A stretch of 64,000 nucleotides of DNA, taken from IMG/VR virus record IMGVR_UViG_3300040770_000151. One strand, 5' to 3'. Within the stretch, counting starts at the first letter, position 1. Each line of letters opens with the position of its first letter. Both the position numbers and the translations under genes were made by a program. Shown in pieces: positions 1 to 28,318 of this stretch. Under the pieces are notes generated by a model. The model was given only the letters and a program-made list of their open reading frames with translations. It had not been told where the DNA came from and did not search any database. This DNA comes from a virus.

Positions 1-1197
1 ATCAATTGGTATAGGTTGATTAGATAAACTAGCCAAACCTTGAACTATTAAACTATTATCAATTGGATCTACTTGCGGAGTATTGCCTATAAAAACTTTA
101 TTTTCTTTTTTAGGCTTTACCACTTTAGGTAATGGACTAGCTTTTAATTTAATGCTATCTTTCGTTGATCTATCAAGTATATCTTGATATTGTTCTAATA
201 CCTTACTAGTTTTAATCCATTCTTCTCTAATTTCAACAACTCTTTCTTTTGACTTTTCATAAGCAATTAAAGCAGGTTCAACTCCTGCACCGTTAGTACT
301 TGCAGCAGCTTTTAAGTATTCTTTTTCAAGTTTTATCTGCTCTTTTTTTGCTTTAATTAATAAAGCATTTATTTCATAAATTCTATACTGAGCATCTCCA
401 GCTTTACCTGCTACTTTTTCTGCAACTGCTTTTGCTACTAATGCTTTTGACACATCATTAATAACATCTTTTAAGTTACCATATAATATCTGTTCTTGGT
501 TTAAATTACCAAAATAAGCAGGGTATTGCTTTTGTAATTCTTGAACTGCAATTAATCGTTCTTTTTTACTTATCGTTTCATCTTGTGCAACTGATACTAA
601 AGCCTTAATAGTTGATATTTCTTCTTGTGCTGATTTATTAGCTTCTTTTGCAATATTTTTTAACGCTTCTGCACTTTCATTAAATGAACCAGTCATTCTC
701 TTATAAACATCGGCAACAGTAACACCGTTTTGGCTCATATAAGTAAAAGCAGTAGTGACCAAAGAAACAGCGAGCAATATACCTCCTGTACCCATAATAG
801 AACTAGCCATTGCTTTTAAAGCTCCACTTGTTGATCCTGTTTGTTCTTTTAAATATCCAAAACTTTCAGCAGTAGCAGTAATATTATTACCTATACCAAT
901 TATTCCGTAAGGTGCATCTTGTGCTATTCTTGAAAACTGCATTAATGCGTTACCTCCGTTTGCAACTTTTGGAGTAATTTCTTTAAAGCTATTCCCTGTA
1001 TCTTTCAAAGTAGTTCTTAAATCAGTAAGACTAGCTTTAACCGATTTAATATTGCCTTGTATTTCTTTAGTATCTAAACCTAAACTAATTCTTTCTATCT
1101 TTATCCTTGATAGTTCTTTTAAGTTAAGTTCAGCTTCTTTTATCTTTTTCTGTAAGTCTGTTACGTCCCCACCAATCTTAATTTCTAATCCTGCCAT
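1..1197 (-). CDS. Tail tape measure protein (N-terminal part, runs off window)
   Basis: Manually read from ATG at 1197: MAGLEIKIGGDVTDLQKK...FSRIAQDAPYGIIGIGNNI; follows tail chaperones; absent from ORF track because its stop is outside the window. Confidence 0.85.
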   Translation of the reverse strand, partial: MAGLEIKIGGDVTDLQKKIKEAELNLKELSRIKIERISLGLDTKEIQGNIKSVKASLTDLRTTLKDTGNSFKEITPKVANGGNALMQFSRIAQDAPYGIIGIGNNITATAESFGYLKEQTGSTSGALKAMASSIMGTGGILLAVSLVTTAFTYMSQNGVTVADVYKRMTGSFNESAEALKNIAKEANKSAQEEISTIKALVSVAQDETISKKERLIAVQELQKQYPAYFGNLNQEQILYGNLKDVINDVSKALVAKAVAEKVAGKAGDAQYRIYEINALLIKAKKEQIKLEKEYLKAAASTNGAGVEPALIAYEKSKERVVEIREEWIKTSKVLEQYQDILDRSTKDSIKLKASPLPKVVKPKKENKVFIGNTPQVDPIDNSLIVQGLASLSNQPIPID

Positions 1198-4027: not shown

Positions 4028-4354
4028 TTAATAAGATATAACCGCAACACTTACGGATGTAACACCACTATAAGCTACGTTTACTAGTCCTGTAGTAGCA
4101 TTAAAACGACCTGTATCAAGTAATCCAATAACTCTTTCTGATCCTGCTGGTATACTTACGGTTATATCCACATCTGTGCCATAGTTAGATAATTGCTTAC
4201 TATCAATCGTTACTGTAATAGCAGCTACTCCACCGTTTTTTACGTGTAAGTATGTTCTACCATTATTTAAAAAAGTATCACCTCCTACGCTAGCAACGTT
4301 GAAAACTGGAGTAATTCCTGCTAAAGCAATTTTTTGTACTGTAAATTGTGCCAT
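4028..4354 (-). CDS. Putative small virion protein
   Basis: Beta-rich 108 aa between MCP and connector. Confidence 0.45.
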   Translation of the reverse strand: MAQFTVQKIALAGITPVFNVASVGGDTFLNNGRTYLHVKNGGVAAITVTIDSKQLSNYGTDVDITVSIPAGSERVIGLLDTGRFNATTGLVNVAYSGVTSVSVAVISY

Positions 4355-4356
4355 TA

Positions 4357-4515
4357 TTATTTATTTTTATTAGTTACTTTTTCTTTTACCTCAATAAGAT
4401 AATCAAACATTGCTTCAAATTCATCTTCTTTTGTAAGTTCGATTGTGTCCCCTACATTATAATGTTTTTGTTCTGACAACTTAAAAAACTCTTGTACTAC
4501 GCTATATTTTTTCAT
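4357..4515 (-). CDS. Small hypothetical head-associated protein (52 aa)
   Basis: Manual ORF MKKYSVVQEFFKL...YNVGDTIELT... Confidence 0.55.
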   Translation of the reverse strand: MKKYSVVQEFFKLSEQKHYNVGDTIELTKEDEFEAMFDYLIEVKEKVTNKNK

Positions 4516-4569
4516 AGTTAATTTATTTATTTATTCAAAGATACAAAAAAAACCATTCGTTAAAATGGT

Positions 4570-4836
4570 TTATTTAAATTCTGTTTTATGTATTGTAATA
4601 TTATTATAAACTATTGGAAACTTTAACCTTGCTAATGTATGATAGGGTAATTTCTCAAACTCACAACACTTTTTTAAATTTCCGTATGCTTCTACTCGTG
4701 ATCCTTGAATGAATACTATTATATTTTTTCGGTTCATTTTAGGTTTTTTATCAAATCTTTTATTACTTTCTTCAACCCATTTACTAGGCGTTTTACTAAT
4801 TAGTGCTTCTAATTTATCTTTCATATCTTGATTCAT
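4570..4836 (-). CDS. Hypothetical protein, possible small DNA-binding protein (moron)
   Basis: ORF track; lies in the insert between MCP and connector genes. Confidence 0.5.
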   Translation of the reverse strand: MNQDMKDKLEALISKTPSKWVEESNKRFDKKPKMNRKNIIVFIQGSRVEAYGNLKKCCEFEKLPYHTLARLKFPIVYNNITIHKTEFK

Positions 4837-25897: not shown

Positions 25898-26098
25898 ATG
25901 AATTTAAGAAGTAAGATTATGAAAACTAAACAACACAAATTAATTAACGGTAGATGGGTAATTAAAAACATTTACGATGCATTACAAGCTAGTTCATTTG
26001 ATATTTATATAAATACTCATAGAAAACTAGAAACGCCCGTATTAAGGTATAAAATAACAAAAGAACATAACTATAAATTTAAATTTGAAAAAAGATGA
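25898..26098 (+). CDS. Hypothetical protein (paralog 57958)
   Basis: KTK.HK..NG.W.IKNIYDALQAS shared. Confidence 0.65.
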   Translation: MNLRSKIMKTKQHKLINGRWVIKNIYDALQASSFDIYINTHRKLETPVLRYKITKEHNYKFKFEKR

Positions 26099-26484
26099 TA
26101 AAATCAAATGAACTTCGAATAAGCAACTACATTCTAAGAAATGGATTGCCTTGTACAGTTGAAATAATTAATGGAGAAACTTCAGAAATTCACTTCTTAG
26201 GAAAAGACTTTTATTTCAGTGATTTTGACGAAAACTTAGAAGCAATCCCACTTACAGAAGAATGGTTGCTAAAGTTTGGGTTTACATCGGACAATTTTTA
26301 CGATGATTATAAATTAGATAATTTTACTATTTCTTCATCTGTACGAATAATATCAACTAATGTAAGAAGTTGTTTTCATACATCTTTTTTAGGCGAATAT
26401 TTTGATGTTAAAATAGACTTTGTGCATCAACTACAAAATCTATATTTTTCTTTAACCAACAACGAATTAAATATACAATTATGA
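26095..26484 (+). CDS. Hypothetical phage protein (related to 52123)
   Basis: ELRI.NY...IPL.EE.L.K.GF...HQLQNLYF shared. Confidence 0.7.
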   Translation: MIKSNELRISNYILRNGLPCTVEIINGETSEIHFLGKDFYFSDFDENLEAIPLTEEWLLKFGFTSDNFYDDYKLDNFTISSSVRIISTNVRSCFHTSFLGEYFDVKIDFVHQLQNLYFSLTNNELNIQL

Positions 26485-26729: not shown

Positions 26730-26782
26730 TAACACAAAATAATAACAACAAATAAGAACTAATCTTTAAATTAAAAAAAAAG

Positions 26783-26998
26783 ATGAAAAAAGAAACACAA
26801 ATACCGCAATTGCTTGAAGATTCTGTTAGTGGAATTGCTTATTTAGCTTTTATGAGGATTGATTATGAAGGAATTTACGAATCATCTATGAATTTATTTA
26901 ATAATAAAAAAGATGCTGAAAAACATTTAGACGAATTAAAAGAGTTACACGGCACTTGGTCTAATACTTATGAGGTCGTTGAGATGCATTGCCAATAA
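26783..26998 (+). CDS. Cassette ORF A1 (starts inside a half element)
   Basis: GTT crossover at 26825 is codon 15 (Val); stop overlaps TAAC. Confidence 0.7.
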   Translation: MKKETQIPQLLEDSVSGIAYLAFMRIDYEGIYESSMNLFNNKKDAEKHLDELKELHGTWSNTYEVVEMHCQ

Positions 26999-27087
26999 CG
27001 TTTTGCAGATAGGCGATGTAAAAGCCTTGTAGGATGTTGAATATTAGTAGTAAATTTGATGGCTTTTATATTGCCTATGTGCTTTTA
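26996..27087 (+). repeat. attC-like hairpin site A1 (core G mutated to T at 27084)
   Basis: gcagataggcgatgtaaaagcc / ggcttttatattgcctatgtgc arms. Confidence 0.7.
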
Positions 27088-27102
27088 TAAGCCGTTAATT
27101 TT

Positions 27103-27175
27103 GGAAACGTAGCAAAGATGGTCTATGCGGAGGACTGAAAATCCTTAGATGTTGGTTCGATACCAACCGTTTCCA
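27103..27175 (+). tRNA. trnF: tRNA-Phe (GAA)
   Basis: Acceptor GGAAACG/CGTTTCC-A, anticodon arm GAGGA-CTGAAAA-TCCTT, T arm GTTGG-TTCGATA-CCAAC; no encoded CCA. Confidence 0.9.
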
Positions 27176-27289
27176 CGAATGCAGTTCGATTCTGCTCGTT
27201 GACCGAGATTATGGTAAAGTCCGATGCGTGGTTCAATTCCACCGTTACGAAAGTAAACTGGGTAAACGGAGGTCTTTTTTAATAGCTTA

Positions 27290-27415
27290 TAACGTCCTGC
27301 CGCTTGGCGATGTTAGCGATAAGTAAGCCAAATATTCGAGTACTCACGAATAAAAACAGGTACAAAACCATTTATTAATTGAGCCTGATGCGCTAATCTT
27401 GCCAAACGGCTGTTA
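27290..27415 (+). repeat. attC-like hairpin site A2 (126 nt)
   Basis: TAAC-gtcct-gccgcttggcgatgttagcg...cgctaatcttgccaaacggc-t-GTTA. Confidence 0.8.
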
Positions 27416-27430
27416 TAACTCGTTTTTCTT

Positions 27431-27652
27431 ATGGAAACATTTACAAGTCTTGAAAACAGATTGCAAGTATTATCTAAATCTTTAAAAAGTTTAAAAAAAA
27501 TTGAAGCAGATAATAAAAAAGCATATGATATTATTTATGAAAAATTAATAAATTCACAAACAGATGTGAGACAAAAAGAGATTGAAATAGAGCCTTTAAA
27601 AAACTCACTTAAAGACTTATATTCTAAAAAATTAGATATTTTAACTCGGTAG
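27431..27652 (+). CDS. Cassette ORF A3 (coiled coil)
   Basis: Bracketed by GTTATAACTC ... GAGTTATAAC. Confidence 0.7.
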   Translation: METFTSLENRLQVLSKSLKSLKKIEADNKKAYDIIYEKLINSQTDVRQKEIEIEPLKNSLKDLYSKKLDILTR

Positions 27653-28093: not shown

Positions 28094-28289
28094 TGGCTTC
28101 GTTCTTTTTTAAACTAACAAAAAATAACAACTTGTAAAAAAATAATTAATTGTAATACGGGTAAAATTATAAAATGCACAAAAAACGGAGGTAGTTTAGG
28201 TTACTACATTAACTCCGTTTTCTTTAAAAAATATGATATTAATAATTTCATTGAAGTGATACCGAAATCAAAATATCCTTTTTAAAACT

Positions 28290-28318
28290 AAAAACGCTCC
28301 AATTAAGAGCGTTTTTTT
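28290..28318. terminator. Bidirectional terminator between early operon A and lysis genes
   Basis: aaaaacgctc-caattaa-gagcgttttttt. Confidence 0.8.

Follow-up and report, generated by a model that had tools for sequence, protein, structure and literature searches.

The locus under study lies in a 64-kb stretch of viral DNA, hereafter the window, and carries two small RNA genes that follow one another between two imperfect hairpins (Table 1). The upstream gene encodes a tRNA-Phe. The downstream gene encodes a tRNA-like small RNA (TLE) with two T-arm-like hairpins. The preliminary description had presented the region as a cassette with a tRNA gene as its content. The tRNA is confirmed, but the cargo is composed of two RNA genes, the second of which had been missed.

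Table 1. Features of the tRNA unit and its surroundings, and tyrosine recombinase genes in other contigs. Positions are those of the window unless a contig is named.
Feature	Position	Strand	Evidence
Site A1, 93-nt imperfect hairpin; 5' core TAAC 26996-26999, 3' core TTTAT 27084-27088	26996-27088	+	R1 59.0 bits, E 3.8e-11
Likely mobile unit: A1 and two RNA genes, starting at the C of a TAAC core and extending through the TAA of the following one	26999-27292	+	
Left cargo end (TTATAAGCCGTTAATTTT), complementary to the right end; tRNA 5' leader	27085-27102	+	
tRNA-Phe, anticodon GAA, discriminator A, CCA not encoded	27103-27175	+	ARAGORN, Rfam
tRNA-like small RNA gene (TLE)	27177-27277	+	homology, covariation
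TLE, T-arm-like hairpin 1	27181-27195	+	
TLE, invariant stretch with D-loop-like GG, between the two hairpins	27196-27219	+	
TLE, T-arm-like hairpin 2	27229-27243	+	
TLE, distal GGTC, can pair with GACC 27201-27204	27268-27271	+	
TLE, T-run	27272-27277	+	
Right cargo end (TAATAGCTTATAAC); its last bases are TAAC, the 5' core of the site that follows	27280-27293	+	
Site A2, 127-nt hairpin, cores intact	27290-27416	+	R1 58.7 bits
Tyrosine recombinase gene	L054:10242-11039	-	
Tyrosine recombinase gene	L042:3483-4262	-	
Tyrosine recombinase gene	L035:6686-7051	-	
Tyrosine recombinase gene	L029:8045-9196	-	

ARAGORN calls a tRNA-Phe(GAA) at 27103-27176, the sole tRNA within 64 kb. With Rfam family RF00005 (gathering score, 29), the interval 27103-27175 reaches 65.7 bits, and the sequence has a readable anticodon and a 7-bp acceptor stem. 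The tRNA-Phe(GAA) reported earlier is therefore real, and its boundaries are as described. The absence of an ORF from the cassette was also borne out: ORFs reaching 40 aa are absent from 27085-27412, where only frames of 30-39 aa are found, overlapping the RNA genes or the site. A chromosomal tRNA-Phe of Lacibacter sp. is identical at 69 of 74 positions, with the acceptor-stem changes paired. The anticodon arm is identical to that of cellular Bacteroidota tRNA-Phe genes and thus gives no sign of a nuclease-escape variant. Judged from its sequence, the tRNA looks like extra supply rather than an escape variant. Phe codons account for about 5% of codons in both phages, the one with the tRNA and the one without, and TTT far outnumbers TTC. 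This indicates that the demand is real, though not higher in the tRNA-bearing phage. A promoter for the tRNA inside the unit was considered and rejected: a TAATTTTG box ends at the first base of the tRNA and has no matching TTTG upstream. In L047, another phage contig with the tRNA unit, a tmRNA (4304-4721, minus strand) and a tRNA-Ser(AGA) (1103-1190, minus strand) are predicted, both outside the array.

The TLE belongs to a family of sequences conserved in unrelated phages. Intergenic, unannotated DNA in Rosemountvirus phages of Salmonella and E. coli matches it at 83% identity across about 70 nt and at 93% across 41 nt, and it also matches unannotated stretches in Cellulophaga phages. An invariant 27-mer, GCAGTTCRATTCTGC TCGYTGACCGAG, is found as an exact pattern at window 27181-27207. 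It is present in 16 IMG/VR contigs, or in 19 if the pattern is loosened. The family is defined by this 27-mer, with a GG loop and another T-arm-like hairpin behind it and, usually, a tRNA in front, and the window's TLE has all of these features. The 27-mer starts mostly 4-6 nt past the tRNA 3' end, inside tRNA arrays of phages, large ones among them; the loci of the family include L001:1497-1600, L006-L021, L055 and L056. Both hairpins are supported by sequence changes. Hairpin 1 changes from GCAG/CTGC to GCGG/CCGC in two contigs, a compensatory exchange, and hairpin 2 covaries at four pairs. A divergent, longer variant is found in L058, after an identical tRNA-Phe.

Rfam gave no match to the TLE at E<=10 in the window, and none at the gathering score in the carrier loci. 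With neither an Rfam match nor a linked Ro60 gene, the TLE is not placed among the YrlA-type Y RNAs (RF02553); a search of five TLE-carrier phages found no Ro60/TROVE gene. A contig of the source metagenome that touches window 27176-27210 has the TLE start directly behind a TATATTTG box and not behind a tRNA. TATATTTG is the Bacteroidota -7 promoter motif, suggesting that the TLE forms its own transcription unit elsewhere.

The source sample is an ice metagenome according to the run record, and the source-run data are contigs. The window is AT-rich, with a G+C content of about 30%, and contains two phage-type genomes in tandem, at 1-28400 and 28400-64000. Two sets of terminase, portal and capsid genes are present and are unrelated to each other. 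The early and replication modules are common to both genomes. The early modules are homologous and located about 32 kb apart, and one protein common to both is 84% identical. Each early module ends in a run of small plus-strand genes with imperfect hairpins between them, yet the cargo sets in these two homologous operons are entirely different. The tRNA unit is located in the first run, array A, and is its first hairpin-bounded unit. The sole strong terminator is found at 28290-28316, so the array appears to be one operon. The two arrays contain 4 and 8 sites, and no recombinase was found in the 64 kb, a layout to which the label CALIN applies only if the sites are taken to be attC sites. Pfam and PHROGs assigned no function to the cassette proteins, and the 82-aa gene upstream of the array, used as a query, returned weak, unrelated loci only.

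Several further features of the arrays were observed. Array A is bracketed by short direct repeats starting with TAAC, at window 26730-26746 and 28115-28131. The two-unit array of contig G006 is bracketed by a repeat of about 40 nt (TATAACTAA.AAATAAGCGAACAA...), at about 6800 and 5835 in L048 (minus strand). These bracketing repeats may be an insertion target or a copied flank. A gene in the early operon (window 26095-26484, 129 aa) that looks like part of the backbone has a 34% identical homolog at L043:10937-11299, and this homolog sits between two hairpin sites. Some 'backbone' genes may thus be former cassettes.

The hairpins form a family with a common structure. We aligned 31 sites, 12 hairpins from the window and 19 from viral contigs found by an exact pattern scan, and built a covariance model (R1) from the alignment. 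The sites have a common layout: TAAC, 5 unpaired nucleotides, a stem of about 18 pairs, a variable loop, 1 unpaired nucleotide and GTTA. About 13 nt at each site end are nearly invariant. In the stem, 88% of the cells in the alignment are paired, and 17 of the 18 stem pairs change on both sides. None of 500 shuffles matched this covariation, and sliding the partner destroyed the signal. In the window, R1 finds exactly 12 sites, all on the plus strand, with E values between 7e-16 and 6e-4; no other hit has E<=1. Outside the window it recovers another 77 sites from 24 viral loci, where the arrays contain as many as 14. The two sites between which the tRNA had been placed, A1 and A2, were both recovered by this model (Table 1). 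The arms of A1 (27005-27026 and 27061-27082) are 86% complementary, and intact A1 homologs are found at L033:3109-3201 and in L058 and L059.

Simpler searches were less useful. A hand-written hairpin scanner returned 207 hits in the AT-rich window and was uninformative, and the covariance model was used instead. Counts of the short motifs GTTATAAC and TTATAACG are at chance level window-wide; significance is found only for the clustered, structured sites. With site A4 as the query, no match was found among deposited phages. Polaribacter phage P12002L, which contains a published CALIN, has no R1-family site.

The sites have some of the properties of attC sites. They are imperfect palindromes of 63-132 nt, the 12 in the window measuring 71-132 nt, within the range of roughly 55-140 nt expected of attC sites, with TAAC...GTTA inverse cores and a stem backed by covariation. 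Their cores depart from the attC consensus RYYYAAC/GTTRRRY, being mostly GTTAT or GTTAG followed by non-purines, with xxATAAC on the other side. The structured strand of attC sites is the bottom strand. Here the top (sense) strand is more stable: it folds better in 28 of the 31 sites, by a mean of 2.0 kcal/mol (p = 2e-5), a comparison of folding energies and not of recombination. Fixed positions in the stem keep a C.A mismatch and two G.T wobbles (alignment A3, columns 14/142, 20/136 and 23/133), and a T.G wobble recurs at the seventh position beyond the cores in the cargo ends. These features favor folding of the sense strand.

The cargo ends are complementary to each other. The letters quoted for them in the preliminary description are in place, with a T at 27084 followed by TTATAAGC, and GCTTATAAC at 27285-27293. 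The ends had been said to match like those of the other cassettes. For each pair of neighboring sites, the eight bases that follow GTTA in the first were set against the eight that precede TAAC in the second. The tRNA unit is complementary at 6 of the 8 bases beyond the 4-base core, in agreement with that statement. The mean over 51 units is 5.73 of 8, compared to 3.0 for flanks of the same hairpin and 2.73 for random pairs. Complementary ends of this kind are characteristic of attC-bounded cassettes and are the footprint of a circular cassette.

The 3' core of A1 differs from those of its relatives by a single base. As noted earlier, the core G is replaced by T at 27084. G is found at this position in 30 of the 31 aligned sites and in all four other copies of the unit. 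The window has CTTTTAT, whereas the A1 homolog in L033 and the four other tRNA-unit copies have CTGTTAT. The L033 homolog is a near-identical, intact copy of A1 (CTGCTGTTAT; window, GTGCTTTTAT). By comparison with these copies, the G-to-T change is a derived mutation of the window copy only. A1 is alone among the 31 aligned sites in having neither a C-G nor a U-G pair at the core, and its predicted fold no longer closes the core. In class 1 integrons, recombination by IntI1 is blocked when the first nucleotide of GTT differs between the partner sites (PMC2811028). By analogy, it is reasonable to regard the TTT core as a 'lock', which had also been suggested before: A1 would be a poor partner for GTT sites, and the unit would be fixed in place.

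The same cargo is found in other contigs. Pattern scans located the tRNA and the tRNA-like RNA in G006 from IMG/VR and in the metagenome contigs L057, L058 and L059; a first metagenome scan, with a pattern for the tRNA/TLE junction, gave no match. The tRNA is identical to that in the window at 74 of 74 positions in G006, L057 and L058 and at 73 of 74 in L059. The 18-nt leader is identical in L057, L058 and L059 and differs by one base in G006. In all four contigs an R1 site with an intact CTGTTAT core is located directly upstream of the cargo, and the gene upstream of that site is different in every contig. Between the window and G006, identity is about 97% from the core to exactly ...CTTATAAC, with no similarity beyond. 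The identity with both G006 and L057 stops exactly at the right cargo end. No backbone proteins common to G006 and the window were found. Contigs of two further metagenomes, lake and freshwater ones from other studies, contain 227-242 nt of the cargo at 96-98% identity. In the source-run contigs, neither an excised circle nor an empty joint was seen; their lone 'skip' joint was considered as a deletion and rejected, as it carries letters of another site.

The position of the unit also varies between contigs. It is the last unit in the G006 array, with no hairpin after it, and the second of at least three in L058. The preliminary description had proposed looking for the tRNA cassette at other array positions, and G006 and L058 provide it; with the window, first, middle and last positions are all represented. 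The contrary case that it had named, the tRNA in relatives without flanking sites, was not found. These comparisons support movement of the tRNA unit between array contexts. With the unit found at hairpin-marked joints of no fewer than four further contigs, viral or metagenomic, the cassette system appears to move RNA genes as well as protein genes.

We searched for an enzyme that could act on these sites. No tyrosine recombinase was found in the window by Pfam scans of 20 larger ORFs or by tblastn with three recombinases. A complete integron would have an adjacent intI gene encoding the integron-specific extra segment, along with attI and a cassette promoter, and no such integrase gene was found there. 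In G001, L042, L035 and G005, tyrosine recombinase genes are located 0.5-1 kb beyond the last site. The linked recombinase genes sit at the array end towards which the genes point. The G001 recombinase, a 265-aa protein with homologs adjoining the L042 and L035 arrays, reaches 159 bits with the integron-integrase model, below the cut-off of 265, and scores best on Xer models. G005 contains an unrelated tyrosine recombinase of 383 aa after its array. No Y1 (IS200/IS605-type) transposase was found in five array-bearing contigs. The linked tyrosine recombinases are candidate enzymes for the whole site family.

The limits of the mobile unit depend on which hairpin travels with the cargo. The earlier proposal combined the cargo with the downstream hairpin, at 27085-27412. 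That the tRNA is cargo of a discrete, core-bounded unit was upheld, but this frame is probably shifted. The downstream site of an attC cassette travels with its gene, and the tRNA cargo does not behave in this way: at the position of A2, L058 has a different hairpin and G006 has none. An A1-like hairpin is found upstream in three of the five contexts (the window, L058 and L059), and the other two contexts have two other hairpins. A rare arm end, GTGCT, is found in all five upstream hairpins and in 1 of 31 among family members. Taken together, the five contexts, the bias in strand folding and the position of the recombinase at the far end of related arrays suggest that the mobile unit is likely the A1-containing interval in Table 1 and not 27085-27412. 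A1 is then probably the tRNA unit's own site, and A2 is probably part of the next unit (ORF 27431-27652). As two upstream hairpins out of five differ, some exchanges must have occurred elsewhere, or been homologous between the conserved arm ends. Three other groups of cassettes with common ends were compared for a travelling hairpin, and their cargos are not homologous. The upstream hairpin, the use of the sense strand and the far-end recombinase together create a layout like that of an integron in mirror. In this mirrored frame, we infer that the mutated base of A1 is the one that partners the C adjacent to the cut.

We conclude that the stretch is probably an RNA-cargo unit of an integron-like cassette array, moved by site-specific recombination and located where the early, rightward operon of a Flavobacterium-type phage ends. 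According to this model, the cargo would consist of a tRNA-Phe(GAA) of Bacteroidota type, followed after five bases by a tRNA-like RNA with two T-arm-like hairpins, and would be bounded by the short cores (GTTA... and ...TAAC) of imperfect hairpin sites. Site-specific recombination would excise and insert such units, acting on one folded DNA strand, most probably the sense strand, and would be catalyzed by an Xer/IntI-like tyrosine recombinase, encoded by some related phage arrays and not by the window. The hairpin upstream of the cargo most likely moves along with it. In the window, the base mutated from G to T would be the crossover nucleotide or the one that pairs with it, and the change would have made the site a poor partner and fixed the unit in place. 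Both RNAs may be cut from a long early transcript by host tRNA-processing enzymes, and the tRNA may add Phe-decoding capacity where the host tRNA pool is limiting or under attack.

Movement without a dedicated recombinase or a circular intermediate was also considered. The hairpins could be mainly RNA elements of the early transcript, involved in processing or acting as stabilizers or weak terminators, with the cargo shuffled by homologous recombination between arm ends in co-infection. The better folding of the sense strand and the conserved G.T wobbles would fit such a role in RNA, and no recombinase was found in the window. The nearly invariant 13 or so nucleotides at each site end suffice for short-homology exchange, and the variation of the upstream hairpin, with the GTGCT arm end staying linked, suggests breakpoints inside the hairpin. 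However, homologous shuffling does not explain why six variable bases beyond the cores are complementary, with a conserved wobble, or why identity between contexts stops exactly at the cores. It also leaves unexplained the tyrosine recombinase genes adjoining four arrays. We consider this explanation unlikely as a whole.

Two explanations dispense with movement of a cassette. The tRNA and its neighbor could be ordinary, fixed phage RNA genes in a repeat-rich variable region, whose cassette-like appearance is a coincidence or the relic of a single old insertion. Phage tRNAs are often found in variable regions, the site next to this tRNA is mutated, and cargo between sites makes up only about 5% of the window, so that placement by chance is not impossible. 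Against this, the same bounded cargo is found in five independent contexts with different neighbors, always with an R1 site upstream, which makes fixed genes very improbable. The tRNA-like sequences could instead represent a phage attachment site, a copied host tRNA end that serves for integration and is not expressed. T-arm-like fragments right behind a tRNA are reminiscent of prophage borders, where tRNA ends are duplicated, and the window resembles two prophage-like genomes in tandem. But the tRNA is complete and high-scoring, the TLE has been conserved, with compensatory changes, both in virulent-type phages from other phyla and within tRNA arrays, and no integrase was found in the window. 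We see hardly any likelihood in this last explanation.

Movement of RNA genes by site-specific recombination would bear on several questions. Integron-type cassettes are known as carriers of protein genes, and 'ORF-less' cassettes are poorly understood. The patchy distribution of phage tRNAs is a long-standing puzzle, and two RNA genes moving as one unit would provide a concrete route for the gain and loss of single tRNAs by phages. The presence of the TLE family in an exchangeable pool suggests an accessory, conditionally useful function. The natural G-to-T core mutant and its wild-type copies provide material for a direct test of recombination by the site family.

The RNA genes can be compared to known phage RNAs. 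Phage tRNAs are reported to counter tRNA-cleaving defenses or host tRNA loss, including a T5 tRNA against PARIS (PMC11464382) and tRNAs against retron effectors (PMC11555353). Similar to these, the tRNA-Phe is a single accessory tRNA in a phage early region, among small genes annotated without function. Known escape tRNAs differ from those of the host, whereas the anticodon arm in the window equals the cellular one, and no defense system that targets tRNA-Phe is linked to the window's tRNA. The nearest described relatives of the TLE are the tRNA-like domain of the YrlA Y RNAs (PMC4201824) and the stable RNAs C and D of T4. The TLE of Rosemountvirus phages has the same conserved 27-mer, two T-arm-like hairpins, D-loop-like GG and place directly after a tRNA. 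Unlike it, the TLE in the window is cassette cargo in a Bacteroidota-type phage.

Two other systems also combine hairpins with mobile phage DNA. In integration of the CTX-phi type, Xer recombinases use folded single-strand attachment sites. Similarly, a hairpin of one strand of the R1 family would present two recombinase-binding arms around a mismatched center, with the recombinase supplied in trans. The CTX-phi type, however, integrates a whole phage genome at chromosomal dif and builds no arrays of small cassettes. In T4-type phages, promoter stem-loops are thought to shuffle small genes by homology. There, as in the window, the small accessory genes of a hyperplastic early region have hairpin repeats on either side. 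The T4-type repeats differ in that they carry promoters and lack both the geometry of cores plus complementary flanks and linked recombinases.

Integrons provide the remaining comparison. Clusters of attC sites without an integrase (CALINs) have been reported in phage genomes (Qi et al., 2023; PMC9892861), and an integron-like phage array is therefore not new in kind. As in integrons and CALINs, the arrays are composed of small, unrelated genes in the same direction, set apart by imperfect palindromes with AAC...GTT cores, and the flank of one site is complementary to that of the next, as circular intermediates predict. As in CALINs, no integrase is located nearby in the window. Compared to attC sites, the cores in the window fall outside RYYYAAC/GTTRRRY, and a 5-nt bulge opposite a 1-nt bulge takes the place of the usual spacer. 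The sense strand folds better, rather than the bottom strand, and the hairpin linked to the cargo is upstream rather than downstream. The recombinases of the relatives are short and Xer-like, are located at the far end of the array and score below the integron-integrase cut-off. The cargo in the window is also different in consisting of RNA genes; a full-text literature search found no report of a tRNA gene as integron cargo. We tentatively suggest, as a possibility somewhat short of an even chance, that Bacteroidota phages contain a mirror-image relative of the integron, with sense-strand sites upstream of the cargo and a short Xer-like recombinase at the far end, which trades protein and RNA genes between unrelated genomes. 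If so, RNAs related to translation would be part of a shared, exchangeable pool of phage accessory genes.
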